DNA from: Mytilus trossulus
Taxonomy: Eukaryota
Reading direction: 5' to 3'
Assembly (NCBI RefSeq): GCF_036588685.1
Contig: NC_086376.1
Location: forward strand, 61,566,001 to 61,630,000
DNA: 64,000 bases
Shown here: positions 5,125 to 60,328 of the stretch, one piece after another
Position numbering within the stretch: position 1 is the first letter of the stretch
How the letters are laid out: each line of letters begins with the position of its first letter
The notes under the pieces: generated by a model
What the model saw: the letters and a program-made list of their open reading frames with translations, nothing else
Told to the model about the DNA's origin: nothing
The model's database searches: none
Made by a program: the position numbers and the translations under genes

Positions 5125-6319
5125 ATGACACCAATAGTATTGCTTTCCTTTGCCCTTTTCGGACTCGTTGCAACTGAGGCCGGTGAAAAAGGATACAGTC
5201 CCAAACATAACCTGAAAGCATATGGAAATCCATTCGGACCAGGTAATATTGGTAGTTTGGGATACCAAGGAAATGGTGGATTTGGATATCCGTCTTATGG
5301 TAGACCAGGATACGGATACGGGGGATATTCCAACAATGCTTATGGTTACGGTTCACCATTAAACATTGGCGGTTATAATGAATACAATGGATATAGTGTA
5401 CAAAGTGGATATCCTGGATACGGATATTTACATGGCAGAGGATTAAACGGATTCAGTGGTAATGGAAATTACGGTGTTTATGGTAAAAATATCGGACCTT
5501 TCAATGGTAATGGATTCGGTCGAGGAATTGGAGGATATAACAATTTAAATGGTTATGGAGCATATGGTATAAATGGGGCATACGGTAGTGCTAACAATTA
5601 CGGAACATATGGTATTGGTGGTTTAAATGGTTATGGATCATATGGGGGTTTGAATGGTTTCGGATCATATGGTGGTTTGAATGGCTTTGCATCAAATGGT
5701 ATTGGTGGTATTGGTAGTTTAAATGGTTTTAGATCATCTGGTTTTGGTGGTTTGAATGGTTATAAATCGTATGGTATTGGTGGTTTAAATAGTTTTGGAT
5801 CGTACAGTATTGGTGGTTTGAATGGTAATGGTATTGGTGTCAATGGTGGACTAATAAATGGAAGACGAGGTGGATTGAGCAGTTTTGGTAAATTTGGAGG
5901 TTAGTAATCCTACACGACAAAAAAGAAGAAAAAGTTGTTATTTATATGTGAAATTTTATAATAATGATACAAATACAATTGCCAACTTGTTACTTAAGAG
6001 GGTTTCATACAAAATGACATTCGTTCGTCACGTTGGTTGATTTAGATTAATGTTCCGACACACGAATATGAGTAAAAGTAAATCGTTAAACAAATCATGC
6101 CGCATGATGAATGAATTGGATAATTATTTAAGATGGGGTGGTAAATGATTTAATATTTTGTTCCATATTACATAGATATTTTTACACTAAGTCTAAAGCA
6201 TAGCAAGGTATAAACAAATGAACATTGATTTGAAAGGTTTTGAAAAATTTGAAATAAGCTTTGAAATTGTAAATTTCAACATTGTTTTCGTCATTGCAGG
6301 TAAAAAAGGAACATATTAG
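5125..6319 (+). CDS. Secreted Gly/Asn/Tyr-rich structural protein, copy 1; join(5125..5899,6300..6319), 264 aa
   Basis: Acceptor TTTCAG ends 5113. Signal peptide MTPIVLLSFALFGLVATEA, then GGLNG[FY]GSY repeats. Phase-1 donor GTTAGT at 5900; acceptor TTGCAG ends 6299; exon 3 gives GKKGTY-TAG. The ORF-track start at 4981 is intronic. Confidence 0.88.
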
Positions 6320-8769
6320 GATCCAAGAAGTCCATGAGGAATTGATGTCGATGTTTTACATTTTTTTATAATGGTTTATGAATATTAAAAAAAAATATAA
6401 ATCTCTTTCTTTTTGATTTTTCATGCACGTTTTGTTTTCTATAGTACCATTTAAAGGAAATATAGAGATATAAACAATTCAAAAAAAAAAATTGTGGACG
6501 AATTACTGCGACCAAAAAGGTAAAATGAGAAACCAAAGCCAAAAAAACATTTTCAAGTAAAAAAAACCCATGCAACATTATAAACCATACTTATCACATG
6601 GTAATGAAATTACTATTTTTGGCGAGGTTTTTCTTATTTCACAGGAGCCTGACTTTATACAGAAACTTCTGACGAAAAAAGAAAAGATTTTGGCAGTATC
6701 CGTTAACTTTTCTTTTTGCTATGTAAATGATTTTCTCTTACTGAATAATGCAATGTTTGGTTACTAAACTAAATAATGTTTTCCATTGGACTGGATACAA
6801 GATACAATTAAGTATGTCTCTTATCTTGACGTTCACATATATACACAGATTGGATTAGGCAGTATTGCTACATGGTCCTTTAGAGTCCTTATGACTAACA
6901 GGATATCACATAATTTTGGCAGTCGTTTTATTTTTATTCCATGTGAATGTAAATATGACTCTTCAAAACTTAACTGTAAAAGGTCATCCTTTTTGCAGAC
7001 TGATTGTGACGCTGAAAAATAAATTGATATATAAATAAAGGCTACAGTAGTATACTTCCTATCAAAAGTCATAAACAGATTGAGAGAAAAAAAATCCATG
7101 TCACGAAGTGCAACATAAACTGTAAGAATAAAACAACGAAACAACAGAACACTGACTTGGTTCAGGACATTTTAAGAAACAATATAAGTCTGGTAACCAT
7201 GGTTTAAATGTAAGTTGAAATCAAATTGAACTAGCTTTTGCTTTTGCGAAACACTTCTGTGTTGCACATTTCAGATGTACTTTTTATTTTTGTTTCATTA
7301 TTCTGTGATGTCGAAGAAAAGAGGACGGGATATGGCAACGAATGCTTTGCCCCAAAAAAACTTCGTTCATTCTGAGACAAGAACTGCAAACCAGAAATTA
7401 TTGCAATATTTGTAGATTTAACAAAAATGCAAGAAAATTATTGGGATTTTTGAAAAATCTCTATCAGATGTAAGAATGCACCTACTCGCATCATTCAAAT
7501 TTATAAAAACCCTGGAATAATTTTTGAACTCTAAAAAAACTCCAAAAATCTTTAAAAAAATCAAAACTGTACATAATATTTTTACACGTAACTAGAAATG
7601 ATTGGTCAACATGAAAATCAACAAAAAGATGAAAACAAAACACGAAAACCATGGTATTGGACTCAGATCTACGACGGAGTGGTTTCGTTATGATTAACAA
7701 GTTTTAATGTCTATATGATACACTAAGTTCTAATGTCAATAGTTCAAATCTACTAGAATAGTTGAAAACAAATTAAAAAATGAGAAGCATCTCATGAAAT
7801 CGAAAATTGATGAATACCAGGTGCCTCGCCAAGGTTATTTTATTTGCGGTATTATTAGACCTATATTATCTATTACTAGTATATCCTTTTATTTTAAGAT
7901 CAGTTGGAAGGGCGCGATATATTCTAGATTTATATAGGAAGATGATAGTGTTTTTCATCATTTCGATGGCCGTAAGGTGACCTGTATCTGCTCACGTCAA
8001 TATCATGTGGAATTGTCTCATTGACAATCATACCACATCTTGTTGTTTTCATTATGAATTATTCAAAGAGAAACAATAGTATACAACATGACCTGAAATT
8101 TAAAGATAAATCTTTTTTCTTGACATTCAACTTGAAAAGCACATATCTGAATTCTAACTTATTTAAATGAAAGAACTAGAATACTAGAAGAAAATCAAAA
8201 GCACAGTTGGTTTCTATAAGATTGAAAACTGCTTTAAAAACACGACTACCAAAGGTATAAAATGGTTTTCATGAGACTCCGTAAATTAGACTTGCCGGCT
8301 TTGAAACATATTCGCAAAACCACGGGTGCCACATGTGAAGCAGAATCTGTTTATCACCCCAAAGCAACTGAGAAGACCCCAGTGTGAGGTGGGATTCTTG
8401 TGGTTTAGTCCTTAGTTCCCTTTGTTGTAATTTATGTAGTATTGTTTTTCTGTTTGTCTTAGATCATCCCCATGTTTAAGGTGCCGTGTTGCTTAGTCAT
8501 TAGGTTTTATGTTGTGTGTTATGTTCTATTGTTTATCTGTTTGGTTTAATGACAACATCATGAATTGGTTGATCTTTATGATGATTGCTGAAATTAATAA
8601 ACGACACTTTTACCATGTTTGCTTAGATTACGGTTTGACATTTATGTCGTCTGTCTACTAATTAAAGAACGTGACCTCTTCTCTAATAGTACTGTGTTGT
8701 GGCTTGTGAATTTGCATTGTTATACGACGTGTTTCGGTATTTATCCATCCAACACTCATGTATCTAGTT

Positions 8770-9060
8770 ATAAAAGAGAGACGACCAAACTCATAAATCC
8801 AAAATAAACTGACAATGCCATAGCTAAAAATGAAACAGAAAAAAAAAAGACAAACAATAGTACACATGATAGAACATAGAAAACTAAAGAATAAGCAACC
8901 CAATCCCCACTAAAAACTAGGGGTGATATCAGGTGCTCCGGAAGGGTAAGCAGCCCCTGCTCCACATGTGGAACCCGTCGTGTTGCTCATGTATTAACAA
9001 GTCCGGTAAATAGTCTAAATCGGTAGGTCACATTCATTATAACCTTTCTGTTGTGGGTTC
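8770..9060 (-). mobile_element. 5'-truncated retroelement 3' end carrying the structured GGGTGCCACATGTGGAGCAG...GCACCTG module
   Basis: Near-identical copies at 21538-21820, 29788-30280 and 56147-56335. At 62908-63570 the same sequence is contiguous with RT C-terminal coding remnants. Confidence 0.6.
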
Positions 9061-12000
9061 GGTAAGATATTATGTTATGTCTTATCGTTTGTGGTTTGAA
9101 TTCTGTATTTTTACGGTACATTTCACATATGTTTAATTTGTCAGTAAACTATGAGTCGAGTTAAATTCTATATTCTTGAAATGAATATTGTAGATTCTGA
9201 ACAGCCTTGTTGAAATCACAGTCAAATTCAAAGATAATGCTAGCTTTACATTCATTTTGCTTATCTCTACTCTCTTTTTCATTTCAATAAAAGAACTAAA
9301 CAGAAATAAGAGAAGCACAACATATTTTTATGGAAATGACCACTGTGCATTGAAAAAACTCTGAAATTACTAAAATAAACAGATCAATTATCTTGATAAT
9401 GTTAGTTTCATCACAGTATTTGTTCTCGTTATTTTTTACACACATAAAAAGTTAAAATACAAAAAATGCACTCCAAGGAAAATAAGTCCATAATCAAATG
9501 ACATAACTTAATCTTCAAGTTTGAATATATTTTGCATTAATTTTGACCTTCATTTGCTCCAAGAAAAATGCATATTTTTATACCCTCATTGTCTAAATAC
9601 GTACAGAAACTATGTTGAGTATACACATGCAAAATTTGCTCACAACTATTTCATATGAATTTAACATGAAATTCACATGAACATTTCACGTGATATTCAC
9701 CTCAAACGAGCTTATACATGAAACTCACTCACTTTCATTTGAAATTTTAGATATTTGAATTACTGTATTTTAAAAATTCATGTGAATTTCACATGAAAAA
9801 ATTAGCGTGAAGGAAATGTTGTAATTAATGACATGTTTTTACATAAACAAAAAAAGTGTTTTTCATTACTATATTTGCGGTTTATATGAAACATTTTCAT
9901 TTTTGCTGTTATGTGATTTTCAAATATATGACATTTCTACAGTATGGGTTAGAGTGTCAAATTATTTTATGTTATTGAATAGTAAATATAATTATATTGT
10001 ATTTTAACCAGTTTTAGTTCAGAGATGGCTCTTGAAAATAAAATAAAATACTCAGCATAAAGAACATGAATATTATTAAACAAGTCCAACAAATAACAAA
10101 GACAAGGATAGCTTCGAGCTCGAATGTACGTCTGACAGCTTATGACCAAATTTTCATTAATTTTTGTTGTGAGACAAATAACCAAATCCGATTTTGTTTT
10201 TGAAGTATTATATCTGGCTTCAAATTCAAATTCCAAAATACCATCATTTGAAAAGAGTTTCTCTGCCGTCGGGGGAGGGGGGGGGGTTAATTTCCTTTTA
10301 CTATGTTATTCCCCCCCCCTCAAATTTTTACGTTTTGTGCAAGATAAACAAAATGAAATTAAACATACTATATTTCAGCTTTTTGCTTTTTCCATTTTTA
10401 TGTAGCAACATTCTAACCTATGGAATTTATAATTGTTAGCTGATACTATACAAAAAAATATAACCAAAAAAACCGAGCCTGAAGATAAATTGAAAAAGGT
10501 GAGAAATCTATGAAAAACTAACACATTTAACGTTATCAACCAGCGAATAAATGTCATGTTCATGACTATAGGTAGGCATGTTCCAAAGAAAATAGTTAGT
10601 TGATTAAACCGTGTGCTATCGATAACTAAACTTCCGAAATATATAAAAGTTGTTATAATTACGTAAATATTGGATGAGCAACCGAAAGAGAAAACGCGTT
10701 TATGAGAAAGAACGATATGTAGTTAATCGTTTTGTGATTTTATTAAAATTCGGCGGTGTCGATCGCGATAACAAGTGAACAGGAAATGGAAATAAAGTGC
10801 AAGAAAAAAACCTTTAAACGACCATTCGAAGAAAGACAGTTGAACTACTGTAAATTCAGAAATTATTGCGTGTGTGTTATATTGCAATCTTTGAAGATAT
10901 GACAAAAATTGTGAGAAAATTATAGCAATTTTGGAAAAATCAGCGCACAGATATATGTACCAGATTTAGGTATTGTAATCATTGTGATACTCGTCTAGTT
11001 TCATTATTAACATTAATAAAAACCCGGTCATTATTTCTGAATAAACGTTTCTATCTCTAAGTTGAACTCCGACAGTCTCTAATCAAATGGCAGAATCAAA
11101 AGCTCAAACACATTGATAATAACTGTCAACATTGTAGAAAAGGTTGTCATGTAGAAAACAATGGAAAGCAAATTTGTAATGAAAAATAAATGTTTAATTT
11201 TTTTTTATGAAAATCTTATACCCGCGAGTCTCCTTAAACAACAACAAAGTGTTATCCACTATTATATTAACAGTTTATGAAACATTCTCAATTTCTGATG
11301 ATATATGTTAAAAAAAAAAGGACACAAAGCAACCATTGCAATAGACTATTTGTGTTTTCAAGTTTAACCACAATGAATGAAATATGGTAATTAATGATAT
11401 ATTTTTACATAAACAAAAAAAAAGGGTTCTTCATTACTATATTTGCGGTTTATGAAACATCCTCAATTTTTACTGTTTTGTGATTTTCAAATATATGACA
11501 TTTCTACAGTATTGGTTAGAAGTGTCAAATTATTTTATGTTATTTAAAAATAGTAAATATAAATATATTGTATTTTATACATTTTTAGGTCAGAGATGGC
11601 TTGTGAAAATAAAATATATAATTTTGACAAAAATATACCTAGCATAAAGAACATGATACAATATAAAAAAAAAACCACGACGAGCCTAAAGATAAATTAA
11701 AAAAGGGGAGACAGCTATGAAAACTAACAAAATTTAACGTTATCAACAAACGGGTAAATGTTATATTCATTATTTGGTAATGCATGTCCCGAAGAAAATG
11801 GTTTCTTAAACCGTGTGCTATCGGTAACTTATCCTCCGAATTATATAAGAGTTGTTATAGTTCCGTAAAAAATTGAATGAGCAACCGAAAAAGACACAAT
11901 GCCTTTATGAGACACCAATAAACATATTACCCGCAGTTTTTGGTGGGGTTCTCGACACTCAGCTTTTAGTTTTTTATGTTATCTATCACGTACTATTCTT

Positions 12001-12369
12001 TGTCTGTTTTGTCTTTATCATTTTTAACCATGGCGTTGTCAGTTTATTTTCAATTTTTGAGTTTGACTGTTCCTCAAGTATCTTTCGCCCTTCTTGTATA
12101 AACGTACTACACAGGTATACATTTGACTAACGTTTTGTGAGAGTTTGCCATTACCATGAACGAAACAGCAGGTGATATGTTTGGAGCAGGATATGAAAGA
12201 CCTTCAAGAGTACATGGTATCATCCCAGATTTTGCATGGTTTCATGTCATTCGGTCTTTAGTATTTCTACACATTGTTATGTAGACGATTGTTTATACAT
12301 TTCCAAAAGAACAAAATCATAATTCAACTTCTTAAAAAAAAATGAAATGACTGCAAGAAGCAAAGTATT

Positions 12370-12825
12370 AAAAATGGATTTACGAACTCCAAGGGAATTT
12401 AAAACGGAAATTCCCTCAGCAAATTGCAAAATCAAAAGCTCAAACACATCAAAACGAACGGATAATAACTGGCATATTCCTAAATTTGAAACATGCATTT
12501 AATGACTAGGAAAATGGTGGATTAAACCTGAATGACTGATGTACCCATATTTTGACTATTTTATTAATTGTGACTGTTTATTTAACGCATCATATTAATA
12601 TAACGGAATTTGATGAGACTGTTATTAAAGTGAGAGGGTTAGCGCTATAGAACCAGGTTCAATCCACCATTTTCTACATTTGAAAATGCCTGTACCAAGT
12701 CAGAAATATGACAGTTCTTGTCCATTCGTTTTTGATGCGTTTTGTTATTTGATTTTGGCATGTGATTATGGACTTTCCTAATTGATTTTCCTCTGAGTTC
12801 AGTATTTTTGTGATTTTACTTTTTA
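12370..12825. repeat. Two copies of an abundant dispersed repeat (GGAAAATTCAAAACGGAAAGTCCC...AAATGGTGGATTAAACCTG family); the second is inserted in inverted orientation (~12532-12825)
   Basis: The same family occurs at ~4000-4100, 25120-25215, 34750-34840, 41000-41100 (rc), 46735-46900 and 53975-54150. Confidence 0.55.
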
Positions 12826-13006
12826 TTTTTTATAGCTAGCTAAACTTTTAACTCAGTTAACGTTGGTTTAAAGAGTCCGAGTTTGAATAGATCAATTACA
12901 AATACAGTGTAAAAAATGCAAAAAATGAAACAACATTAAAAGACACAAATAATTAGAAATGCACAACTTGGATATCAATGAATGTGTACGAATACTTAAA
13001 TAAAAT

Positions 13007-13385
13007 GGGAAATTTTCCTAATACTGAATTACACTTGTATTATATGAGAATTTCAAATATTACTAATAGGTGAAAGTCCCTAAACCAAGATAACAAAGGG
13101 TAAAACAATAGCAACAAATAATTGATGACAATATTTTCTATCATTGTGGTTAACCGTTTTGTTTTTGTTTTTAGATAGATATAGGAAGATGTGGTGTGAG
13201 TGCAAATGAGACAACTCTCCATCCAAATAACAATTTATTATTTAAACCCACTTTACAGGTTTATCATTGTTAAATGTTTATTTTATAACTGATTATAACA
13301 TAATGTGTGGTCAGTGAGTATATCATATAAGACGCAGTAAACAATACGTATCACAAGGAACACACCAGCATAGATCATTACAGAG
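13007..13385 (+). promoter_or_regulatory. Promoter and non-coding exon 1 of copy 2
   Basis: GGGAAATTTTCC 13007-13018; TTTTCTATCATTGTGGTTAACC 13134-13155; TATAAG 13326-13331; donor GTAAGT at 13386. A ~65 bp retroelement tail is inserted at ~13173-13237. Confidence 0.75.
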
Positions 13386-13601
13386 GTAAGTACTTGATTT
13401 GCTTTAAAAGATATTCGTCATTCTCTCACAAAATATCTTGTTAATCGTCACAATTCGTATACATATAACTCAATATTTTATTTACAACTTTTATCTTTCA
13501 TTAACCTTCTTCAGCATTTTCGGTGATCCGTTTTCGCTTATGTTTTTACATTATTATTTTATTTTGACGAATTATTGAAAATCGTTTCAGAACCAACAAA
13601 C

Positions 13602-15109
13602 ATGACACCAATAGTATTGATTTCCTTTGCCCTATTCGGACTCGTTGCATCGGAGGCCGGTGAAAAAGGATACAGTCCCAAACATAACCTGAAAACATAT
13701 GGAAATCCATTCGGACCAGGTAATATTGGTAGTTTGGGATACCAAGGACATGGTAGATTTGGATATCCATCTTATGGTAGATCAGGATACGGATACGGGG
13801 GATATTCCAACAATGCATATGGTAACGGTTCACCATTAAACATTGGCGGATATGCTGCATACAATGGATATAGTATTCAAAGTGGATATCCTGGATACGG
13901 ATATTTACATGGCAGAGGATTGAACGGATTCAGTGGAAATAGAAATTACGGTGTTTACGGTAAAAATATCGGACCTTTCAATGGTAATGGATTCGGTCGA
14001 GGACTTGGAGGATTTAACAATTTAAATGGTTATGGAGCATATAGTATAAATGGGGCATACGGTGGTGTTAACAATTACGGAACATATGGTATTGGTGGTT
14101 TGAATGGTTTTGGATCATATGGGGGTTTAAATGGTATCGGATCATATGGTGGTTTGAACGGTTTTGCATCATATGGTATTGGTGGTATTGGTAGTTTAAA
14201 TGGTTTTGGATCATCTGGTTTTGGTGGTTTGAATGGTTATAGATCTCATGGTATTGGTGGTTTAAATAGTTTTGGATCATACAGTATTGGTGGTTTGAAT
14301 GGTAATGGTGTTGGTGTCAATGGTGGACTAATAAATGGTAGACGAGGTCTAAATGGATTGAGCAGTTTTGGTAAATTTGGAGGTAAGTAATCCTACATCA
14401 CCAAAAAGGAGAAAAAGTTGTTATTTATGTGAAATTTCATAATAATAATACAAATACAATTGCCAGCTTGTAATTTGAGAGGGTTTCAAACAAAATGACC
14501 TTCGTTCGTCACGTTGATTGATTTAGATTTATGTTCCGACACACGAATATGAGTAAAAGTAAAACGTTAAACAAATCATGCCGCATGATGAATGTATTGG
14601 ATGATTATTTAAGATGGGTTGGTAAATGGTCAAATATTTTTTTAACAATATTACATTGATTGCTTATACCTAACTCTATGGAGAGTCCGACTTTATGGAT
14701 ATTTCTACACTAAGACGTCAGCATAGCAAGATATACACAAATGAACCTTGATTTGAGAGTTTTTGATTTTTTTTTTAAATAAGCTTTGAAATTGTATGGG
14801 GCAAGTCGTTTTCCATAAACCTTGTGCATTTTTTTCGTTTGATTTGAAAGTTATTTTGATACCAATTATCTAAATCAAAGATAAAAAAACTGAAGGAAAA
14901 GTAGGAGATGTACGGAAGAATAAGAAAAGATACGAACAACCGTAGGAGACATAAAACCGAAAGTTTTTTTTTGAGCAATTTTAGCGGAATGTTCATTTGA
15001 AAAAATCTTTTGAGAATATGAACTGAAATCTTCCTTTAATAATGCAATGCAATCACCTTATTATTTGAACATTGTTTTCATCATTGCAGGTAAAAAAGGA
15101 ACATATTAG
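13602..15109 (+). CDS. Secreted Gly/Asn/Tyr-rich structural protein, copy 2; join(13602..14382,15090..15109), 266 aa
   Basis: Acceptor ends 13590; signal peptide MTPIVLISFALFGLVASEA; donor GTAAGT at 14383; exon 3 gives GKKGTY-TAG. Confidence 0.9.
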
Positions 15110-16845
15110 GATCCAAGAAGTCCATGATGAATTGATGTCAATGTTTTACAGTTTTTTTTATAATGGTTTATGTATATTAAAATAAATTTTAATCTCTTTC
15201 TCCTTGATTTTTCATGCACGTTTTGTTTTCTATAGTACCATTTAATGGAAATATAGAGAAGCAATTCAATTGAAAACAATATGTGAACGAATTATTGCGA
15301 CCAAAAAGGTAAAATAAGAAACAAAACCCAACAAAACATTTTCGAGAAAATAAACCTTGCTTATCACATAGAAATGAAATAACAATTATTGGCGAGGTTT
15401 TCCTTATTTCACAGGAGTCTGACTTTATACAGAAACGTCTGATGAAGAAGAACAGATGTTGGCAGTATCCATTAACTTTTCATTTTGCTATATAAATGAT
15501 TTTCTCTTGCTGAATAATACAATTTTTGGTGACTAGGCTGAAATCATCTTTCCCATTAACCTGGAGACGAGATACAATTAAAGGGAAATCACACTATTTA
15601 AACTACTAATAATAATTCATTTAAATTTTGCATGTAGACAGCTCATACTTATGACAATATTTTAGGCGAAAAAAAAAATTGGGGTCACCGATGTTGTTTT
15701 CGAGATATGACGTCATCAAAAAGTAAAGAATCGCGTTATACCGTAATATAGAAATATTGCTCAAAAATGCTTAAAGAAGGCAAAATTATCGAAAAACTAT
15801 GCTTAACTGGTTTAACTAAAACAGTCAATTGTAGATTTTATCTCATACCCATTTATTTTTCTCAGTTTCCTTTTTTTTTAAGGCCCTTTTTAATTTCCCG
15901 CCATTTTTGATTGCCATTTATTATAGATTTTTCTTGAAATAAAAAAAATCTACTAATGTTTTTTCCTTCAAACTTCTGCATTAGTTGCAGCTTCGGGGGA
16001 GATTTTAAAAGCATAAATAAAAAAGGGGGGTCACCGATGTTTTAAATCCGCTACAATGGAAATAATCTTATAATCGATTTTTGGCGGGAATTATAACTTT
16101 TTCTCTTTACGTTACAGAACGACGTTGCTAGCATAGCAGCATTTCTTGCAATGCTTTGAACTATTGGGTTAAACCTTTTTACTAAACCATTATAACATGT
16201 ATAATATATATATATTTTTTTATAGTAATTATTTTTTGGGGCATTTTGATTATTCATTATTAAACATACAGTAACAGCTTATCAAAAAGTAATTGTCAAA
16301 GTTGGAGCCATCTAAATTTTCTATTGCATTTGTTGTATCTGGGCTGAAAAGTAACACGTTCCATTTAGACTACAAACAGAATAAATTCACTAACTAGTCC
16401 ATTGCACCGGGAATATAAAACCCGAAATGCCGTGTTTAAAAGCCACAAACTCAGCACTTTGAAAAAAAAAAAAAACTCAATGAAATCGTTTTCGGTAGAA
16501 ATTTAAAATTGGCTAACATTTCTGTTATTACACAACGCTCCATAATCGAACCAAATTAAGTTCGAGTTCCAGTTTTTGAGTTCAAAGTTCAAGTTTGATT
16601 TCGAATATTTTTTCCAGTAAGATTTCTAGTTTAAGCTCGAGTTACACTTAGAAACTTCTGAGTTATACTGTTAGATAGAATAAAAATTCTAGTAAGAGTT
16701 TAAATTTTGAGATCCGATGAAATTAAGATTAAGAATGGGGTTTCTATTTTCTGTTTGTGCACCTCTTTTTGTTTGAATGTATATTCTTTTATCACATTTA
16801 TCTTTCATTGTGGTAAATGCACCTATTTTTGCCAATACTGATTAA

Positions 16846-25840: not shown

Positions 25841-27328
25841 ATGACACCAATAGTATTGATTTCTTTTGTCCTTTTCGGACTCGTTGCATCGGAGGCCGGT
25901 GAAAAAGGATACAGTCCCAAACATAACCTGAAAACATATGGAAATCCATTCGGACCAGGTAATATTGGTAGCAATGGATTTCAAGGAAATGGTGGATTTG
26001 GATATCCATCTTATGGTAGATTAGGATACGGATACGGGGGATATTCCAACAATGCTTATGGTTACGGTTCACCATTAAACATTGGCGGATATGCTGGATA
26101 CAATGGATATAGTATTCAAAGTGGATATCCTGGATACGGGTATTTACATGGCAGAGGATTGAATGGATTCAGTGGTAATGGAAATTACGGTGTTTACGGT
26201 AAAAATATCGGACCTTTCAATGGTAATGGATTCGGTACAGGACTTGGAGGATATAACAATTTGAATGGTTATGGAGCATATGGTTTGAACGGGGCATACG
26301 GTGCTAACAATTACCGAACATATGGTATTGGTGGTTTGAATGGTTTTGGTTCATACGGTGGTTTGAATGGTTTTGGATCATATGGTGGTTTGAATGGCCT
26401 TGCATCAAATGGTATTGGTGGTATTGGTAGTTTAAATGGTTTTGGATCATCTGATTTTGGTGGTTTGAATGGTTATGGATCTTATGGCATTGGTGGCTTA
26501 AATGGTTTTAGATCATACGGTATTGGTGGTATGAATGGTAATGATATTGGTGTCAATGGTGGACTACTAAATGGAAGACGAGGTCTAAGTGGATTGAGCA
26601 GTTTTGGTAAATTTGGAGGTAAGTAATCCTACATCATTAAAAAGAAGAAAAAGTTGTTATTCAAATGTGAAATTTCATAATAATGATACAAATACAACTT
26701 ATAATTTGAGAGGGTTTAAAAAAAATGACCTTAGTTCGTCACGTTGATTAATTTAGATTTATGTTCCGACAAACGAATATGAGTAAAAGTAAAACGTTAA
26801 ACAATAATGCCGCATGATGAATGACTTGGATAATTATCTAAGATTGGGTGGTAAATGGTAAATATTTTGTAACAATATTACATTGATTGCTCATACTTTA
26901 CTCTATGGAGACTTTATCGACATTTCTACATTAAATTTCAGCATAGTAAGGTGTAAACAAATGCACATTGATTTGAAAGACTTGAAAAATTTGAAATTAG
27001 CTTTGACATTGTATGGGACAAGTCGTTTTCCATAAACCCTGTTCATTCTTTTCGTTTGATTTCTAAGTTATTTAGATTAATTTGAAACCAATTATTTAAA
27101 TCAAACATGAAAAGCTGAAGGAAAAGAAGGAGATGTATGGAAGAATAAGAAAAGATAAGAACGACCGTAGATGACATAAAACTGAAAGTATGAGCATTTT
27201 TAGCGGAATGTACATTTAACAATATCTTTTGAGAATATGAACTGTAATCTTCCTTTAGTAATGCAATGCAATCACCTTATTATTTGAACATTGTTTTCAT
27301 CATTGCAGGTAAAAAAGGAACATATTAG
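25841..27328 (+). CDS. Secreted Gly/Asn/Tyr-rich structural protein, copy 3; join(25841..26618,27309..27328), 265 aa
   Basis: Acceptor ends 25829; signal peptide; donor GTAAGT at 26619; exon 3 gives GKKGTY-TAG. Confidence 0.9.
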
Positions 27329-35510: not shown

Positions 35511-37797
35511 ATGACACCAATAGTATTGATTTCTTTTGTCCTTTTCGGACTCGTTGCATCGGAGGCCGGTGAAAAAGGATACAGTCCCAAACATAACCTG
35601 AAAACATATGGAAATCCATTCGGACCAGGTTTTATTGATAGTTTGGGATACCAAGGATATGGTGGATTTGGATATCCAACTTATGGTAGATCAGGATACG
35701 GATACGGGGGATATTCCAACAACGCCTATGGTTACGGTTCACCATTAAACATTGGCGGATATGCTGGATACAATGGATATAGTATTCAAAGTGGATATCC
35801 TGGATACGGATATTTACATGGCAGAGGATTGAATGGATTCAGTGGTAATGGAAATTACGGTGTTTACGGTAAAAATATCGGACCTTTCAATGGTAATGGA
35901 TTCGGTCGAGGACTTGGAGGATATAACAATTTGAATGGTTATGGAGCATATGGTTTGAACGGGGCATACGGTGCTAACAATTACCGAACATATGGTATTG
36001 GTGGTTTGAATGGTTTTGGATCATATGGGGGTTTGAATGGTTTCGGATCATATGGTGGTTTGAATGGCCTTGCATCAAATGGCATTGGTGGTATTGGTAG
36101 TTTAAATGGTTTTGGATCATCTGGTTTTGATGGTTTGAATGATTATAGATCATATGGTATTGGTGGTTTAAATGGTATTGGATCATACGGTATTGGTGGT
36201 TTGAATGGTAATGGTATTGGTGTAAATGGTGGACTAATAAATGGAAGACGAGGTCTAAGTGGATTGAGCAGTTTTGGTAAATTTGGAGGTAAGTAATCCT
36301 ACATCTCCAAAAAGAAGAAAAAGTTGTTATTTGAATGTGAAATTTCATAATAATAATACAAATACAATTGCCAACTTATAACTTGAGAGGGTTTAATACA
36401 AAATGACCTTCGTTCGTCACGTGGATTGATTTAGATTAATGTTCCGACAAACGAATATGAGTAAAAGTAAAACGTTAAACAAATCATGATGAATGAATTG
36501 GATAATTATTTAAGATAGGATGGTATATGGTAAAATATTTTGTTACTATATTGAATTGATTGCTTATTCTTTACTCTATGGAGACTTTATGGAGATTCCT
36601 ACACTAAGACTTAAGCATAGCAAGGTATTAACAAATGAACCTTGATTTGGTAAGGACCGATTTTGGCCTCAAATTTCAGGTTCATCTGACGAAAGATTTT
36701 GACCACTTTTCAAACACTTAAGTGTCTATTTCATTTGAATCAATTAGATTATGTGAAAGATTTTAACTGATATTGTCATTAAAAACGACCCGATTCAAGC
36801 TCAAATATGAAAAATCTACCAAATATGTCGAAAAATGTCACTTTTCAGATGGTTTTCGTCAAAAATGAAAATGGCCGCATCTGTGTTCATCTTCAATCTT
36901 TATATATGTTATGTATTATCATAAAATACAACATACATTTTAATATTAAGGATGAACACGAATGCGGCCACTTTTGTTTCACACGAAAACCGTCTAAAAT
37001 TTAACAAAAATGTTAGAATTGTGAAGATTTCAGAAATTAAGCATGACTTAAGGTGGTACCCAACACCTTGACTAAAATTAGTTTGGCTCGTTTAATATTC
37101 ATAAAATTTTGAATAAATATTTACTTTGACCATCTGACAAAAATATAAAAATTTCAAAAAATTTGAACCAAGCATTTTATCAGAAAAATTACACTGGTTA
37201 TATAGCAGTTTGGGAAACAGTAATTTTGATAATTGAAAAGCTTTTTATTCCCTTACAACACAACGTCATTAAAACGTTTAGCTGATATTACAGAGTTATC
37301 TCCCTGTAGTGTTAGGTACCACCTTAATGGTGCTAGTACCTGATATATGTGCATTATTTTGTCAAAAACAGCCCATATTTATGTAACAGAAGCATTCTAC
37401 TGTACAATAAATAACTAAAAGTTTACATTTTTAAAACAATTTTGTAAAACCTCTCCTTTGAAATAAGCTTTGAAATTGTATGGGACAAGTCGTTTTTCAT
37501 AAACCTTGTGCATTCTTTTTGTTTAATTTGAAAGTTATTTAGATTTATTTGATACCAGTTATCTAAATCAAACATGAAAAACTGAAGGAAAAGTAGGAGA
37601 TGTACGGAAGAATAAGAAAAGATATGAACAACCGTAGAAGACATACAACTGAAAGTTTGAGCAGTTTTAGCGCAATGTACGTTTAACAAAATCTTTTTAA
37701 AATATGAACTGGGAAGTCTTCCTTTAATAATGCAATGCAGTCACCTTTTCATTTCAACATTATTTTCATCATTGCAGGTAAAAAAGGAACATATTAG
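35511..37797 (+). CDS. Secreted Gly/Asn/Tyr-rich structural protein, copy 4; join(35511..36288,37778..37797), 265 aa
   Basis: Acceptor ends 35499; signal peptide; donor GTAAGT at 36289; exon 3 gives GKKGTY-TAG. Intron 2 is enlarged by a TE insertion. Confidence 0.9.
36650..37458. mobile_element. ~0.8 kb DNA-transposon-like insertion in intron 2 of copy 4
   Basis: Absent from intron 2 of copies 1-3, between CTTGATTTG and GAAATAAGCTTTG. It hosts a nested MITE. Confidence 0.6.
37052..37323. mobile_element. 272 bp MITE with TTAA target duplication (Kolobok-like)
   Basis: TTAA-GGTGGTACCCAACAC ... GTGTTAGGTACCACC-TTAA. Confidence 0.85.
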
Positions 37798-45005: not shown

Positions 45006-45039
45006 TCCAGTGAAAGTGAACAAATACTTTAAAATAAAT

Positions 45040-45628: not shown

Positions 45629-46591
45629 ATGACACCAATAGTATTGATCTGTTTAGCCCTTTTTGGACTCGTGGCATCGGAGGCCGGAGAGAAAGGATAT
45701 AGTCCCAAATATAACCTGAAAACATATGGAAACCCATTTGGGCCAGGTTTGATTGGAAGTAATGCATTTCAAGGAAATGGTGGATTCGGATATCCGTCTT
45801 ATGGCAGATTAGGTTATGGATATGGAGGATTTGCCAACAACGCACATGGTTACGGTTCACCATTAAACATTGGTGGTTATTCTGGAATCAATGGCTATAG
45901 TGCACAAAGTGGATATCCTGGATACGGGTTCAAGAATGGAAGGGGTTTGAACGGATTAGGTGGTTATGGAAATTACGGCGTATACGGTAATGGAATAAGA
46001 CCTTTCATGGGTTATGGATACGATCAAGGACTTGGAGGAAATGTATATGGAGCATATGGCATTAATGGGGCATACGGTGTTAATAATCATGGATCTTATG
46101 GTATTGACGGTATTGGTAGTTTGAATGGTTTTGGATCATATGGTGGTTTGAATGGTTTTAGATCATATGGTATTGGTAGTTTAAATGGTTTTGGATCATA
46201 CGGTATTGGTGGTTTGAATGGTTTTGGTATTAACGCTAATGGTGGGCTCACTAATGGAAGAAACAGTTACAGTGGGTTTGGCAGTTTTGGTAAATTTGGA
46301 GGTAAGTAATATTAGATCGCTAACTAAAATAAAATTGAAATTTTATAAATATAATATAATAACAATTGAGAGGAAGTGTCATACACAATGGCATATCCTT
46401 TTTTGATGTAAAGATTTATTCTCTTAGTTCTTGTGCATTGTATTCTATTTTAAAAATGATTTAGATTACATATTTTCTGAATCAAAAGAGAATTTGAACT
46501 TAATTCACAACTCTTCCTTCAATAATTCAATGTAATCAACTTATCATGTAAAAATTGTTTTATCATTTCAGGTAAAAAAGGAACATATTAA
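45629..46591 (+). CDS. Secreted Gly/Asn/Tyr-rich structural protein, copy 5; join(45629..46301,46572..46591), 230 aa
   Basis: Acceptor ends 45617; signal peptide MTPIVLICLALFGLVASEA; donor GTAAGT at 46302; acceptor TTTCAG ends 46571; exon 3 gives GKKGTY-TAA. Confidence 0.9.
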
Positions 46592-47411: not shown

Positions 47412-49689
47412 GCTAAATATGTAAGTACAAAGCCATGTCATATGTAACAAAGAAACACAAAAAAAGTATAAAGACAAAGCACATTATATAAACAAATCAT
47501 GACTAAAATAGGAGATAAAGCTATGTGAAATTATAAATGAGATTTTAAACAAAATGAGAGGACCTGGTATAAAATCTGTTTCGATCTAACTCTGCTTGAT
47601 GAACATTTTACTACAGTTGCCTTCATTAACCTTTACTGATAATATAGCAGTCAAGAACTTAAAAAGGTGCTATCTTGGTTTTTTTCAAATACTGTAACGT
47701 CATATATGTTGAATACAAAATGAGTTCTATTTTGGCTGGATATGTTAATAAGCCCTACATTATGTATACTTGCGAAGTAGTTCGCCTTGATCAGTATATA
47801 TAGCCATTACAGATAATGAATGCACGAAATATATTTATTACTGACAAATAATCGGTAATTTCGTTACCAAAATATACATTAACACAGATTTTTTAATCAG
47901 TCTGGTTGGTTGCATGCTTTTAAACTACATAGCCGGCAATACTATGTAATGATATCCTGTTTGCTATGAGGTTTCAAAATATCACAATTCGGAATATGAA
48001 AATAGGGTTCCCTTATTTACACTATAAAGCAGAGAATAGACAACTTTCGAGTTCGATGCATTTTCGTCAAAAACTGTGGTTTTAGTGAACATAATTTGTA
48101 ACATTCCAATGTTGAGCGAGTGGTTGGAAAATTATAATTCTTTATTGCACACATTATTTGGCAAACTAAATTCTCATAATTGACAATCAGCACTGCTGTC
48201 ATTGGGGAATTGTGACAATGTACTTACAAAACAATTTTTTTTTAGTGTATCTTGCACAATGACGATCACTAAGACGCTTGATGAACGTTGATAGTGAAGG
48301 GATACAGGCGACACCCTCTATCTTGTAAATGACGTCACCAAGACGTGTCTAACTGACAAGTTTTTTCCGGTGACGAATGAACTCGAAAGTGGTTTGTTAT
48401 ATTGGTATCCTAAGATATAAAAATTGCTGAAAAAAAGAAAACGAGTGAAGACATCAAACTTTTGTTTCGGTCAAACAGTTCATAATGTTGAATTTTTAAG
48501 AACATTTTTTTCACATATAAAAAGAAGTGAAAACCAATATAATAAAAAAAACTTTAACTTTGGTGTCTTTGTAAGTTGTTGCTTAGCCAAAAACAAAGAC
48601 TCAGGCCTATTAGGAAACAAAGCTCTTAAACAGAGATTACTTTTCAAAATTATATCTCATATTCAAAAACTGTTACCAACTGTAACATAAGAAATAATAA
48701 GGCTGTTGTTTGGTTTACTAATGTTGATGGTGTCCATAAAACTTATGAAGTGTTCCATACTCTAAATGCACGAATGACACACGTCATATTTCCCATCACA
48801 AGGAACCATTCGATGAATATTCATATTCTCCGAGAATAGGTTTGTGGTGCTAATCAATTTATAGATATCCAAAAACTTACTGTTTGCTATAAATGTATTA
48901 CAAATGTTGCAACTAGATAAAATACTGAATGATTTCTGGACGGTTTCGGCTATTCGATATATTTTCAGCCTGTTTGTTTAGCGTGGTTTGTATGGCCTTG
49001 ACGATTTTAAGAGACGAAATATATGTGTGACTGATGAATTTAAAAGTCAGGGATTTTGTTACTACTAATATCATGAATATCTAAACATCTGTACTAAAAC
49101 CTTACGATTTACAAAGATTTGATAAGGCACTATGGCTGATCATTGAAAACCCGAAAAACAAAAAGTAAATCAAATCATAAATTTGCCGGTTATGTAATTT
49201 TAACAGTATGTACATTTAAATCTGCTCCATCAACACTTAGCTGTAAAACGTTCTGCTTCTGTAATAACGAGTTTGACGTCGTACACTACAATATAGGAAG
49301 ACTACTGATTCGTATATAAGCATCGGAAACATGGTGGATTTATCATAAGTTAGAATGAAATTTGAACAAGCTTCCAGTATTTGCGAAAACCTGTGATATT
49401 GCTTATGACAGGAATTCATTTTGCAACATTTAATGGTTAGTAAGAAGTAATTAAAATTGATAAATCAAGGAAACACAGATAGGCACTCCTTTAATAAAAA
49501 TAATTAAAACAGGACAGACTATTTAAGACGTTACTGGAAAAGATCGACCAGCATGAAAAACTAAGAAGAAAAAAAGGAAACAACATGGTAGTGCATTTAA
49601 TCTGCGACTTTTCATTTTGGAGCAGCCAAGTTCAAATGTCGATCATTTATATTTATCAAGGCGATGATAGTTTTAATCTTCTCCGGTCA

Positions 49690-51210
49690 TAGAGGAGTTG
49701 TCTTGCTCCATGACAAAAGTGTTGTCGTTTCAGCTGACAAAGTCTCAAACAATATTGTTTTTGTTTGCAAGAAACACTACATTGACTGCCTGATTAAGAA
49801 ACTCGGAATAAATAACACACACGGAATTCCTAAACATACACTAAGTACGCTTACGAAGCATGAAATCCTGGAAAACCACAATTCGGTTATAATTTCCTTT
49901 GGTGATAATCCAAGGGATGAAGACCAGGATCTTCCATCCTTATATTGGATTCATAAGCTTCACAAAAATCATTATAAGGAAATATGTATTGCAGGTTCTT
50001 CCAAGTGTTCCACTAAACCCTTTCTATACGTCTTACTGCCATACTCACTGCAGTTAAAGAAGAAGGACTTCAGAAATATTCTGATTTAGAAGCGGTGTTA
50101 ATCAGATGTGGATGCTGAAAAATTCAAAAGAGTTATTGTTGAATTCACAATCTCATCATTACAGAGGTGTACCATCTCACAGAGACATAACTTGGGAATG
50201 TTACCAGTACATTTACATGTGCATATTGTTTACATTTAGATCTGTGGTAACCTTTCATTCGAGGTAGGGATAGTTATGGAAATAAGTGTTGGTTTGAAAT
50301 CTGAGAAGTTCAGGGCATATAAACGTTGATAACATGCCGCACAGCCCTATATTTTGACCTTTGAAAAAAATTGTGGTGCAAATGAACTTCAATTCTAGGA
50401 TAAGATTTTTTTCAAAACTTCATAGCACAAGTGGTACAGTTTGAGCCGTAAAAGGAGTTCCTATGGAAAATTGCATTGTCAATATTTACAGAAATGCAAC
50501 CTATAACATTTTACCAACACTAAAACCTTTGAGTTTTCTACTTTGTATTCTACTATTCCACATACTAAACTCAAAGCTCGACTTAAAGAACTCCTCTTAT
50601 GTTTCTGTACTATCTCTTAATAATAATAATAGATTCAGTGGTCACTTACATTTAATATATCTAAGTGAACTTGAAATTAAAGAAACTACCGACACAGATA
50701 AATCACAGTTAGACCTTTTTTTTTCGAAATGACTACTGATGGTAGGTTAAGTACAAAAAATTATGACAAACGCGATGATATTAATTTTCCTATAGTCAAC
50801 TTTCAATTTCTATGTAGCAACATCCCATCTGCAGTATATGTATCTCAATTGATACGTTACTGATACGGTAAGTTGATTTTGTTGAACGATGAATACTGCT
50901 TTCTCGAAAGTTGCTAAGACAGGGCAATCAAATTAAGGTCATCACTCACGATTACGATGTTTGAGCTGATTGGTCATTATGACAAAAGTGTGTCAGAAAT
51001 CATATATGATATTCTTCCTCAGTCATAATAACCTTTCATCATTACCGAACTGAACAAAGAAATAACACGACGACAGCCGTATACGATGCAGGAAATGCTT
51101 ACCCTTCCAGAGCACCTAATTTCACTCCCGGTTTTTACTGGAGTTCGTGTTGTTTCTTATTTATTATTCATAACTGTTGATGTAAATGTCTTTTGGTTTT
51201 GTGAGTCTAT
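49690..51210 (+). mobile_element. Degenerate Penelope-like retroelement reverse transcriptase (pseudogenised, internally deleted, interrupted at ~50160-50520)
   Basis: Motifs in order: LHDK.VVV.ADK.SNNIVFVCKK, LPSLYWIHKLHK..IAGSSKCSTKP, GVNQMWMLKNSKELL (~50095), TFEFSTLYSTIPH (~50525), LSLNN...ELEIKETTDT, YDKRDDINFPIVNF..LCSNIP, YVSQLIRY. The structured 3' module follows at 51062-51155. Confidence 0.8.
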
Positions 51211-51576: not shown

Positions 51577-51788
51577 AATATCCTATATAATAAATGAACA
51601 TTTTAACAAAACAATAAAACGCGCACATTCAGCTTGTTGCCTAATCTATAAGATAACGGCGATTAACATGTTTGAAGTTTAAATAGATAAATGTTAAATA
51701 CGGTAATGAAAGGTAACAATATACGACACAAATAAATAAAAATGTAAATAGCTATAGGTGAAAGTATACGAACACCTAGATAAAATGA

Positions 51789-52692: not shown

Positions 52693-53837
52693 ATGACACC
52701 AATAGTATTGATTTGTTTAGCCCTTGTCGGAATTGTGGCATCGGAGGCCGGAGAAAAAGGATATAGTCCAAAATATAACCTGAAAAAGTACGGAAATCCA
52801 TTTGGACCAGGTAATATTGGTAGCAATGTATTTCAAGGAAGTGGTGGATTTGGATATCCGTCTTATGGTAGATCAGGATACGGATACAGGGGATATTCAA
52901 GCAATACATATGGTTACGGTTCACCATTAAACATTGGTGATTATGCTGGATACAATGGATATAGAATACAAAGTGGATATCCTGGATACGGGTTCATGAA
53001 CGGAAGGGGTTTGAATGGATTAGGTGGTTATGGAAATTACGGTGTTCACGGTAAAGGAATCGGACCTTTCATGGGTTATGGATTCGGTGGAGGACTTACA
53101 GGATACAACAATTTAAATGGTTATGGTGCATATGGTATTAATAGGGCATACGGTGTAAACAACTATGAATCTTATGGTATTGGTGGTTTGAATGGTTATG
53201 GATCATATAGTATTGGTGGTTTGAATGGTTTTGGATCATATGATATTGGTAGTCTGAATGGTTTTGGATCAAATGGTCGTTTAAATGGTTTTGGATCATA
53301 TGGTATTGGTGGTATAAATAGTTTAAGCGTCAATGGTGGACTCATAAATGGAAGACAAGGTCTCAGTGGATTGAGCAGTTTCGATAAATTTGGAGGTAAG
53401 TAATCCTACACCACCAAATAGAAGTATATTTTTCATTTAAATGCGAAATGATAGGAATATAATATAATAACAACTGCATAATTGTTATTTGAGAGGGAGT
53501 TTCATACAAAATGGCATATCCCTTTTGTTTTAAAGAATAATCTCGTATTCCTCATGTATTTTGAAAGTGATTTAGATTAATGGAATACCAATTCTCTGAC
53601 TAAAAAATGAAAAAAACGAGACAAAACAAAATAACAAATCAAAGCCGAGCAAGATAAATATAAACAACCAGAGGATACATACAACTAAAGGATTGATCAA
53701 TTTTAGCAAACTGTACATTGAACTAAATATTTGGAGAATATGCAATTACTTCACAGTTCTATCCTCAAAAATACAAAACAATCAACTGATCATGTCAACA
53801 TTGTTTTCTCATTTCAGGTAAAAAAGGAACATATTAG
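52693..53837 (+). CDS. Secreted Gly/Asn/Tyr-rich structural protein, copy 6; join(52693..53395,53818..53837), 240 aa
   Basis: Acceptor TTTAG ends 52681; signal peptide; donor GTAAGT at 53396; acceptor TTTCAG ends 53817; exon 3 gives GKKGTY-TAG. Confidence 0.9.
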
Positions 53838-57239: not shown

Positions 57240-57564
57240 GGACTTTCCCTAACACTCAGTTACACCAAAGATCGGAATATATTACTACAAAATGACATTT
57301 TTTTCAAAATAAGAGCTCAACATCGATATCGGATTGAACAATAATCATGATAATGCTACTATACAATTGTATATGAATGATTGATTAACATTACTTCCTA
57401 TCATTGTGGTAAACCTTTTTTGATAATACACATCTTCTATCACAAACGTTTATATTTATTATATATGAATTTTTTAACCGATTACAGTGAAATGTGTGGT
57501 AAATGACTATGTATATATAGGTCATCAATTAGTAAATCAGCACTAAGAAAGTCATCATATCACA
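57240..57564 (+). promoter_or_regulatory. Promoter and non-coding exon 1 of copy 7
   Basis: GGACTTTCCC 57240-57249; TTCCTATCATTGTGGTAAACC 57395-57415; TGTGGT ~57495; TATATATAG at 57512; donor GTAAGT at 57565. Confidence 0.65.
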
Positions 57565-57879
57565 GTAAGTTTAAGAATTTATATGCGACGTTCTAATTCA
57601 TATTATCGCATATTTGGAATGTTTATTATATTCATTGATATTGCTACGATAAATGCTATAAAAACAATAGATAACAACGTAAAAATTGATTTAATTACAT
57701 TTGCATTAGCATAATGTTCATCTTTCAGCTACACATTAAACTGTTTTATTATTTTGTAGCTTTGTATATATACTTTGATGTTTTTAAATTTCTGTTTTCA
57801 CAATAAGATTTAATGTTCTGCATAGTACAACACATGTTTATTGAAATATTATGAATTATACTTTTAGAACAAACCAACA

Positions 57880-60328
57880 ATGTCACTTAAAGCTTACCTG
57901 TGTTTGTCGCTCGTCGGACTAGTAGCTGCAGAAGCTGGGAAAAAGGGATATAGTACCAAGTATGACTTGAAGACATATGGGAATCCGTTAGGACCTTTTC
58001 TTGGTGGCAATAGATTTCAAGGAAATAACGGCGCTGGATATCCTTTGAATGGTGTATCTGGATATGGAAATGGTATCTATGCAAACAACTTTTATGGATT
58101 AGGTTCACATTTACACTATGGCGGCCATGTCGGATACAACAACTATGGTACCCAAGATGGATTTCTTGGAAACAGATTAATGAACGGAAGAGGTTTGAAT
58201 GTATGAGGTGGTTATCGGAATTACGGTGTTTATAATAATGGAGTTATGCCATTCAATGGATATGGATTTGGTCAAGGACTTGGAGGATATGGAGGGTATA
58301 ACAATTTGATTGATTCTAAAGCATTTGGCATTGGTCGTGTAAATGGGTATGAATCATATGGTATCAGTGGAATGAAGGGTTACGGAGCATATGGTGTGGG
58401 TGGTTTTGGTGAAATTGGTGGCATGTATGGTTATGGATCATATGGTATTGGAATTGGTGGTTTAAATGGTAATGGAGCAAATGGTTTGGGGTGGTTTGAA
58501 TGATTATGGATCACATAGTATTGGTGGATTCAGAAACGGAAAATACGGATACAGTGGTGTTGGTGGTTTTGGTAAATTTGGATGTAAGTTGTTTCATATA
58601 ATACAATTTAAAAAAATGCACCTTTTTTGGGTTACAATTTTCATATTCAACTTTAATATTTACTTATATTTCTTCATATTATAAACGCTTAAAGTGTGAT
58701 GCCATTAAAAGAAATAACAACAAACAATGTTACCGGCACTAAACTTTTATTTATACTGCACTCGTTCTATTTGAGCAGTTAAAATGCGCTGACCGTATAT
58801 TTCTATGTCATATACAGTCACTGACCTGATATCACTTTTCCTCATGAATATTCAAATAGAAATTGTCGAAATTATAATTAATTATGCATACGACCTCATC
58901 AACCTGGTCTTGTTTCCAATGTAAACAACGATGCGTTTAACAACTCAAACTTGTTTCTTTTACAATTTTTGGGAAAAATATTTCACTTATTAATATTTTT
59001 TGTTTGAAACCTATAAATCATTATGTTTTATGTTAATTGTTGATATTCAAGTCTGTAAACAAACAAATTCGTTCACCTTTGATAGCGGTTTTCAACAGGT
59101 AATGATGTACATTTCATCGTTTTGTAAATTTCTCCGCCTGTGTAATATGAGGCCTTTTTAAATGGGGATCTTTCCAATATTTAAATCAAATAAATATTGA
59201 CACACTTAACAACAATTGAAAATGTTTTTTTTTAGATTGCAGTATAAAGACAATAATATTCGGCCCGAAACGGGGAAAATGCTCGGCACAGCCTCGCATT
59301 TCCCTGTTTCTAAGCCTCATCCTTATATTGTTGATATGTCAAGTCAATGCACTATTATTGTCTATTTTCACGAAGATTTCTCTTCAATATATGCGAACTA
59401 TTTGAGGGGCTAAATTCTCACAGCGTGGGGGTAGTGTGACAAATAATCAAAACATCGATTGTTCAATAAAGCACCAAGCATTAAATAAGAAAAACCGAAC
59501 AATAGTAAACAGAATACAGAGTATGTCACGTAAATTTATTATCATTTAAAAAAAACAAGAACTTGCAAATAAAAAAAGATAATATTACAATTACATCACA
59601 ATAACATAAAAAAGAAAATGTTATTAATACTCATCAAGCAAATAAACATAATAGCAATAGTTAGATTGTATTTTTGCAATTACTTAGATCTATATGTACA
59701 TCTTATGTAATATATGATTGTTAGAACTTTTTTTTATTTCAATAAGGAAAATGGTCTGAAAAAAACACAACACGTAAAAATGAAAATATACACATGAACG
59801 GAAGAATAAGAAAACTTATGTATACACCAAGTACTCTAGCTTATATTGATTCGAGTAACATAAATTATTTTGTTTTATATATTCAAATGACATCACAATA
59901 CTATACATAGAAAAGAAATAATGTAAATTGATCAGCTGTATAAATATTCATTGTCAAAATCAACATAATATAAAAAAATTGGAGTAGTATGTGCGTTTTT
60001 TTTGTAATTACACAGGTTTATATAGCTGGTGTTATATCTGCTTGTTTAAATAATTTACTACAAATTGAGAGAATATTTGGTAAAGCAAAACATAAAAAAA
60101 TAACAAAAAAAGCCCCAAAAAACAAACTATCACATAAAAATTCAAAGATATAGATATACGGAATAAAAAAAAAAGATCTTTATGCTCATCAAGTATATAC
60201 TTTATACTTAAACAACATGAAATTCAATCCCAACCGTATGTTAAAGAATATTTATGCACAAATTTTATGACACTTCTATAAATTAATCCTTTTCTATTTA
60301 TTTTGCAGGTAAAAAAGGAACATATTAG
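57880..60328 (+). pseudogene. Divergent Gly/Asn/Tyr-rich protein gene, copy 7, disrupted; exons 57880..58583 and 60309..60328
   Basis: Signal peptide MSLKAYLCLSLVGLVAAEA then GKKGY. In-frame TGA at 58204-58206 (TTA Leu in copies 5 and 6). Frameshift at the G-run 58488-58491; homology resumes to FGKFG. Donor GTAAGT at 58584; exon 3 intact. Confidence 0.8.

Follow-up and report, generated by a model that had tools for sequence, protein, structure and literature searches.

What does a 20-nt segment, standing hundreds of bases behind a long coding exon and repeated with its gene along one piece of mussel DNA, add to the protein? The piece, here called the window, is 64,000 nt of Mytilus trossulus DNA (contig NC_086376.1, positions 61,566,001 to 61,630,000 of the forward strand), in which seven tandem gene copies, six of them intact, encode proteins rich in Gly, Tyr, and Asn. 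The segment is a spliced terminal coding exon, and it gives each intact copy a KKGTY tail. The original prediction, made from the letters of the window, had placed such an exon at 6300, 15090, 27309, 37778, 46572, 53818, and 60309. An exact 19-mer begins at each of these positions and at no further site in the window, even when up to three mismatches are allowed; shuffles contained it 0.18 times on average, and none of 100 reached seven. The acceptors were also as foreseen, with CAG directly 5′ of the 19-mer in all seven copies and 11 to 12 pyrimidines in the preceding 15 nt. In six of the seven introns, no earlier YAG scores as high.

The main exons, all seven on the + strand, hold 673 to 781 coding bases and end at donors after 5899, 14382, 26618, 36288, 46301, 53395, and 58583, which leaves second introns of 400, 707, 690, 1489, 270, 422, and 1725 nt in copies 1 to 7. 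A phase-1 donor 0.27 to 1.7 kb upstream had been proposed for every copy; the spacing (270 to 1725 nt) held throughout and the phase held in copies 1 to 6, but copy 7 is broken. Joined in phase 1, copies 1 to 6 give open frames of 230 to 266 amino acids (aa) that end in KFGGKKGTY and a stop codon. Among the seven copies, copy 5 has TAA as its stop and the other six have TAG. The polyadenylation signals noted earlier for copies 1 to 6 are present, with ATTAAA or AATAAA 64 to 87 nt 3′ of the stop; in copy 7, the first such signal lies at +244. Ahead of the copies stand a TATA-like box and a short noncoding first exon, the latter predicted. The parts are as follows.

5125 to 5899, + strand: copy 1 main coding exon, with predicted signal peptide, N-terminal KGYSPK, Gly/Tyr/Asn-rich body, 27/33-nt repeats, and phase-1 donor GTTAGT
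5900 to 6299, + strand: copy 1 intron 2, 400 nt, GT..AG, skipped in the X4 contig
6300 to 6319, + strand: copy 1 terminal exon, coding part, (G)KKGTY-stop, with ATTAAA 64 nt downstream
13602 to 14382, + strand: copy 2 main coding exon
15090 to 15109, + strand: copy 2 terminal exon, coding part
25841 to 26618, + strand: copy 3 main coding exon
27309 to 27328, + strand: copy 3 terminal exon, coding part
35511 to 36288, + strand: copy 4 main coding exon
37778 to 37797, + strand: copy 4 terminal exon, coding part
45629 to 46301, + strand: copy 5 main coding exon
46572 to 46591, + strand: copy 5 terminal exon, coding part, with TAA stop
52693 to 53395, + strand: copy 6 main coding exon
53818 to 53837, + strand: copy 6 terminal exon, coding part
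57880 to 58583, + strand: copy 7 main exon, of a second subfamily and broken, about 70% identical to copies 1 to 6
60309 to 60328, + strand: copy 7 terminal exon; 26 nt including TTGCAG are identical to copies 1 to 4
4867 to 4928, + strand: copy 1 TATA-like box and predicted noncoding exon 1, from motifs and similarity, with the donor after 4928
After 13385, 25619, 35284, 45340, about 52086, and 57564, + strand: predicted exon 1 donors of copies 2 to 7, from motifs and similarity

Is the intron removed? Splicing was checked in contigs of four of the seven runs guessed to be RNA, over 4600 to 16000 (copies 1 and 2), and the junction is among the joints listed. In one contig of run X4, 400 nt bounded by GT..AG are missing, and these are exactly intron 2 of copy 1 (depth, 34.8; 37 nt on the short side). 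The original prediction had set such joining against transcripts that are never joined and are polyadenylated within intron 2, and it is the joined form that we found. The copy 1 donor (5900 to 5905) reads GTTAGT, not GTAAGT, yet its intron is the one seen skipped in X4. Among the other contigs, one of 862 nt from run X2 covers 5112 to 5897 and goes on for 73 more letters, another of the same depth differs at 15129 to 15130, just 3′ of the copy 2 terminal exon, and a contig of run X1 covers 14103 to 14386, followed by 11 further letters. The X-run contigs differ from the window at some bases and may stem from other alleles, paralogues, or sister species. With the intron left in, the last residues would be FGGK in copies 2 to 6 and FGG in copy 1; the gain from the exon is thus only four to five residues. 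Ends of the form K-K-G-x(0,1)-Y occur within the window only at the seven known sites.

GKKGTY had been called invariant in all seven copies. Six of them do encode it, but in copy 7 the last base of exon 2 is T, and the junction codon becomes TGT, with Cys instead of Gly. This copy also has an in-frame TGA at 58204 to 58206 and a 1-nt frameshift near 58485 to 58490. Since intact members of its subfamily (P0023 to P0025) are found in M. edulis and M. trossulus records, copy 7 is likely a recent pseudogene or a null allele; the lesions may also be an assembly error. No extra partial gene copies were found in the window.

The exon proved less hidden than supposed. The open reading frame track of the window misses it, but 11 of 16 named Mytilus records (from M. 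coruscus, M. galloprovincialis, M. californianus, M. edulis, and M. trossulus) already end in GGKKGTY, and the tail exon is thus part of public Mytilus gene models. That a conserved basic-Tyr tail is added by a spliced exon is borne out by these five species together with the copy 1 junction. Of the other five records, four continue through the donor with G-K and then intron-like sequence, and P0008 ends earlier. P0002, P0004, P0007, P0010, and P0022, and probably P0011 and P0012, are public models that read through the phase-1 donor and have wrong C termini.

The closest named homologues are all from Mytilus. CAC5421008.1, XP_076105186.1, XP_052098898.1, XP_071170219.1, and XP_063434120.1 are direct homologues of the array proteins, and most of them end in GGKKGTY; five M. 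coruscus records with near-consecutive accessions suggest the same array. Their names are automatic and inconsistent (keratin-associated, prisilkin-39-like, and, in one RefSeq record, acanthoscurrin-2-like). Pfam returned 0 families for four of four proteins, the PDB sequence search gave no match, and no relative turned up when metagenomes were scanned with the Mytilus alignment. Arthropod Gly-rich look-alikes in the ESM Atlas (best scores, 0.83 and 0.82) were weak and were taken as composition. No published description of the family was found in the literature searched; most subscription papers lay outside that search, and proteome supplements might list the family. Five family motifs had no match in the supplements of PMC3896809, where 9 of 16 files had searchable text, and the accessible parts of PMC4944945, PMC3325083, PMC3091754, and PMC13052691 say nothing on tail exons. 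Judged by sequence, this is an uncharacterized Mytilus family of basic, Gly/Tyr/Asn-rich, likely secreted proteins.

What kind of chain carries the tail? All six intact copies have a single N-terminal hydrophobic stretch, with hydropathy of 2.7 to 3.4 from residue 4 and a maximum of 1.04 after residue 25; from this N-terminal hydropathy only, the family is likely secreted. The predicted mature chain, in 15 proteins, is 30 to 35% Gly, 11 to 15% Tyr, and 9 to 13% Asn, with no Cys and an isoelectric point (pI) of 9.2 to 9.8. It opens with G[EKQ]KGYSPK, which is literally GKKGY in four records. No other part of the family is conserved as widely as the longer form of this motif, G[EKQ]KGYSPK[YH]NLK (5176 to 5220 and equivalents), and nothing else can be aligned to distant relatives; the motif mirrors the C-terminal tail. 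The main repeat is Asn-rich, of the GIGGLNG[YF]GSY type, with one to three GGY per protein. Copies 1 to 6 have no Trp (six of six), 0 to 2 Met in the mature region, and 11 to 19 Asn-Gly pairs per protein.

How far back does such a tail go? When 1.84 billion representatives were searched with a profile, 11 hits came back, and what most of them share is just the signal peptide and the N-terminal motif. One such distant group was examined as loci L001 to L004. L001, whose protein has three homologues, aligns with copy 2 over 40 residues, 20 of them identical (E = 7e-11 for the pair). In both L001 and L003, a Gly-rich exon reaches a phase-1 GT after KK, and 793 and 822 nt on, respectively, there is a long pyrimidine tract and CAG and then G-K-S-Y-stop. 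The GKSY acceptor scores top in each case, at 13.2 versus 7.6 among 144 AGs in L001 and 13.2 versus 3.1 among 45 AGs in L003. The longest exact run shared by the two loci (51 nt, against 76% identity overall) covers the GKSY exon. L001 (485 to 1939) and L003 (1302 to 2710) make up a distant subfamily with GGLNG[KN]F repeats and this predicted terminal micro-exon. L002 stops short of the micro-exon site, and L004 has no clear exon. L004 (239 to 670 and about 1530) is a further paralogue with (GGY)n repeats whose frame closes behind SSYHK; among its acceptors, that of a possible tiny Tyr-stop exon farther downstream comes only third. If the GKSY exon is real, the design of the tail, not its sequence, seems old.

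A second question is whether the exon is held constant as DNA beyond the needs of its peptide. Extra nucleotide-level constraint had been suggested, on the grounds that the adjacent intron and untranslated region (UTR) diverge. That divergence is strong for copy 7, whose flanks are 45 to 60% identical to those of the other copies, but among copies 1 to 4 the first 100 UTR bases agree at 90 to 96%, and in the tree these copies group as one tight clade. The seven copies thus amount to about four independent lineages. All six synonymous sites of the tail are invariant, versus 35 of 76 in the body, the body set being amino-acid-invariant codons scored for third-base invariance (Fisher p 0.013, or 0.051 with the variable stop counted); with A/T-ending codons only, p is 0.023, or 0.084 with the stop. 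The longest run of invariant columns is 19 and the next 10, and copy 7 equals copies 1 to 4 over 26 of 26 nt between flanks about 50% identical. Such figures would suit a distinct nucleotide element of 19 to 26 nt, either an RNA-binding site or a structure, or homogenization by a short gene-conversion tract, but we consider both improbable. The exon was picked post hoc, and a run of six or more invariant sites arises anywhere with P of 0.44. Copy 7 departs from the majority at 26 of 76 synonymous sites, so the probability of 0 departures in 6 is 0.08. Folding of the spliced-junction RNA was no better than in shuffles in all seven copies (z from +0.63 to −1.42), and a stable RNA structure at the junction was rejected. 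The sequence is also not kept in L001 and L003, and the UTR likeness to these loci is not significant, being reached by 25 and 108 of 300 shuffles.

Synonymous invariance increases toward the 3′ end (rho 0.28, p 0.014), and at the 3′-half rate, the tail result has P of 0.088. Nine synonymous sites in a row are invariant, and three of the nine belong to exon 2 (run of nine anywhere, P 0.045). Codon use in copies 1 to 6 is narrow, with AAA in 30 of 32 Lys codons and ACA in 17 of 20 Thr codons; one of four invariant body Lys columns keeps a single codon across all seven copies. Splice enhancers, in the available part of a study on human data (PMC4054783), are rich in purines, sit close to the ends of exons, and change slowly at synonymous sites. 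The proposed extra constraint is weakly supported by the contrast between tail and body, whereas the chance of a six-site run, the 3′-half rate (P about 0.09), and a run that starts in exon 2 speak against it. Nucleotide identity may go beyond background, and then only marginally (p 0.01 to 0.09, post hoc). Most likely, the identity of the exon DNA reflects protein constraint, few lineages, AT-favored codons, and splice-proximal constraint, and a separate element is not needed. Splice-proximal constraint suits better than a special element because the invariance straddles the intron into exon 2.

What, then, might the tail do? The original prediction took the hexapeptide to be the key functional tag, which it may be. 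On balance, we favor a cationic Lys/Tyr end group that would bind or cross-link chains in an extracellular, probably quinone-tanned matrix. In favor of this stand the exon with its phase-1 intron, the copy 1 junction, the same tail in five Mytilus species, and the distribution of Lys: in the 15 proteins, 96 of 116 Lys fall within the 26 terminal residues (16 at the start, 10 at the end), which make up 12% of the length. The predicted GKSY exon of the distant relatives points the same way. We imagine a secreted chain with a flexible Gly/Asn/Tyr middle and Lys-rich ends, in which Tyr oxidation would be followed by Lys-quinone, dityrosine, or cation-pi contacts at the chain ends. The resemblance of the N-terminal G[EKQ]KGY motif to the C-terminal KKGTY would fit a two-ended design. 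Quinone tanning and Lys Schiff-base links have been proposed for the lysine-rich matrix proteins (KRMPs) of Pinctada, as the accessible text of PMC4498902 has it.

Several observations weigh against this assignment. The end zones in which Lys was counted were picked after inspection, and the proteins are related, not independent; in the distant relatives, the end-weighting of Lys is weaker (4 of 9 and 4 of 8). Tanning as such would not call for a Tyr at the end, since Tyr is plentiful from one end of the chain to the other. At the transcript level, the run type is only a guess, and the splicing check covers copies 1 and 2 only. The GKSY exon is only predicted and has a weak donor, GTATTT, and among those relatives the unspliced end of L001 and L003, KKGIY and six further residues, is well preserved too. 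Finally, synonymous invariance in the exon is nominally significant in some tests (p 0.013 to 0.045).

Certainly, the tail is strictly fixed at the C terminus in five species while the body drifts, and basic-Tyr ends are also seen in Gly-rich families of molluscs that are unrelated (PMC3896809, available part). Instead of a cross-link site, both would fit a trafficking or packaging signal that serves granule sorting or lets a modifying enzyme, such as a tyrosinase, recognize the protein. We find this rather unlikely, in that the distant relatives have another predicted tail, KKGKSY, and the N-terminal KGY likeness fits a two-ended chemical role better. Nor is the tail a canonical KKxx endoplasmic reticulum (ER) retrieval signal. 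KKxx is the canonical ER-retrieval rule, and it was rejected here with Lys at −4/−5 and no membrane anchor.

A Gly followed by a dibasic pair is the general rule for amidation, and G-K-K matches it. A convertase would then cut the tail off, and what remained would be a cationic protein, amidated and rich in Gly, that might act as a defence peptide, in keeping with a pI of about 9.5 and with the one record auto-named acanthoscurrin-2-like. This seems to us quite improbable: GTY, past the supposed cut, is invariant although a discarded peptide would not need it, and the residue before KK in L001 and L003 is Asn or Tyr, not Gly. The automatic names also disagree with one another, and Pfam returned no family.

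A cross-linking end group invites comparison with known matrix proteins. Shematrins and KRMPs end in basic-Tyr motifs, according to the part of PMC3896809 at hand. The shematrins of Pinctada, as described in the accessible portions of PMC3896809 and PMC9210306, resemble the array family in being basic, rich in Gly and Tyr, of low complexity, and likely secreted, and in having a short basic tail that runs to Tyr; their genes also lie in tandem (PMC4759782, in part). The N-terminal signal peptide expected of a shematrin is predicted in all six intact copies. Their tails, listed in the same portion of PMC3896809 as RKKKY, RRKKY, RRRKY, IRRKK, or PRKKY, are matched by none of the six intact copies, which end in KKGTY and not in three to four basic residues plus Tyr. 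Shematrins are basic and Gly-rich and have GnY repeats followed by a hydrophobic residue; the array proteins are basic and Gly-rich too, with few GGY and an Asn-rich main repeat. None of the 10 profile hits looked up, out of 11, is labelled Pinctada, although low-complexity families align poorly, and shematrin exon structure was not found in the literature searched. Pinctada KRMPs resemble the array in their pI (about 9.5), in a Gly/Tyr region and a C-terminal basic-Tyr motif, and in the quinone tanning that has been proposed for them (PMC3896809 and PMC4498902, each in part), but they are about 10 kDa with a Lys/Trp-rich lead domain, while copies 1 to 6 are 230 to 266 aa and have no Trp.

Two further systems come close in composition. 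TMP-1, a byssal thread matrix protein, is from the same genus and has Gly/Tyr/Asn composition like the array; the array proteins have their 11 to 19 Asn-Gly pairs, and TMP Asn residues are reported to deamidate (PMC12817120). Its consensus GYGYGNYGYGY, as quoted in the seen part of PMC6474901, is matched at only 6 of 11 residues at best in all six copies. Abductin, from the scallop hinge ligament, is a Gly-rich random coil, as the array chain probably is, and dityrosine links between Tyr at its chain extremities have been speculated on (PMC9999432, in excerpt). It is unlike the array in being 116 aa long with Met-rich GGFGGMGGGX repeats, as opposed to 0 to 2 Met in copies 1 to 6, and Tyr all along the chain. 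The array family would appear to work like shematrins and KRMPs. We file it as neither, since it lacks the RKKKY-type signature and the Lys/Trp domain.

The original prediction went further and saw in the tail exon a module shared with other matrix-protein families. This has found no support so far: a search with the last 40 residues gave 6 proteins among 18 candidates of 106 to 340 aa, all of this family, and the only wider sign is the predicted GKSY exon in distant relatives of the same family. One can still envision an ancient end cap for the low-complexity matrix proteins of bivalves, a phase-1 terminal Gly-Lys...Tyr-stop micro-exon that shematrins, KRMPs, or hinge proteins would have inherited from a common source, but we hold this to be doubtful.

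Outside the genes, the spacers (about 7650 to 13360 and equivalents) reach a summed contig depth of up to about 20,000, which is typical of dispersed repeats or transposon fragments, and several high-depth intergenic stretches were duplicated together with the gene units. On the − strand, 49601 to 50089 holds a 162-codon stop-free frame that, by the impression of its translation, resembles a piece of a decayed retroelement.

For now, the result is modest and mainly at the level of annotation: in 4 of 16 named records, the gene model continues through the donor and its C terminus is wrong. A whole intron and exon are kept to add four residues in copies 2 to 6, and Lys is confined to the two chain ends. 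Basic-Tyr tails recur on molluscan Gly-rich matrix proteins, no functional test of them was found in the literature searched, and the array family offers a compact test case. If the end-cap exon is shared with shematrins or KRMPs, intron position could decide the relatedness of families that cannot be aligned. Were it indeed an ancient module, it would serve as a homology marker where sequences are unalignable, with the GKKGTY and the predicted GKSY exons as its first two cases, and it would point to a single chemistry, of cross-linking or of sorting, at the end of the chain.

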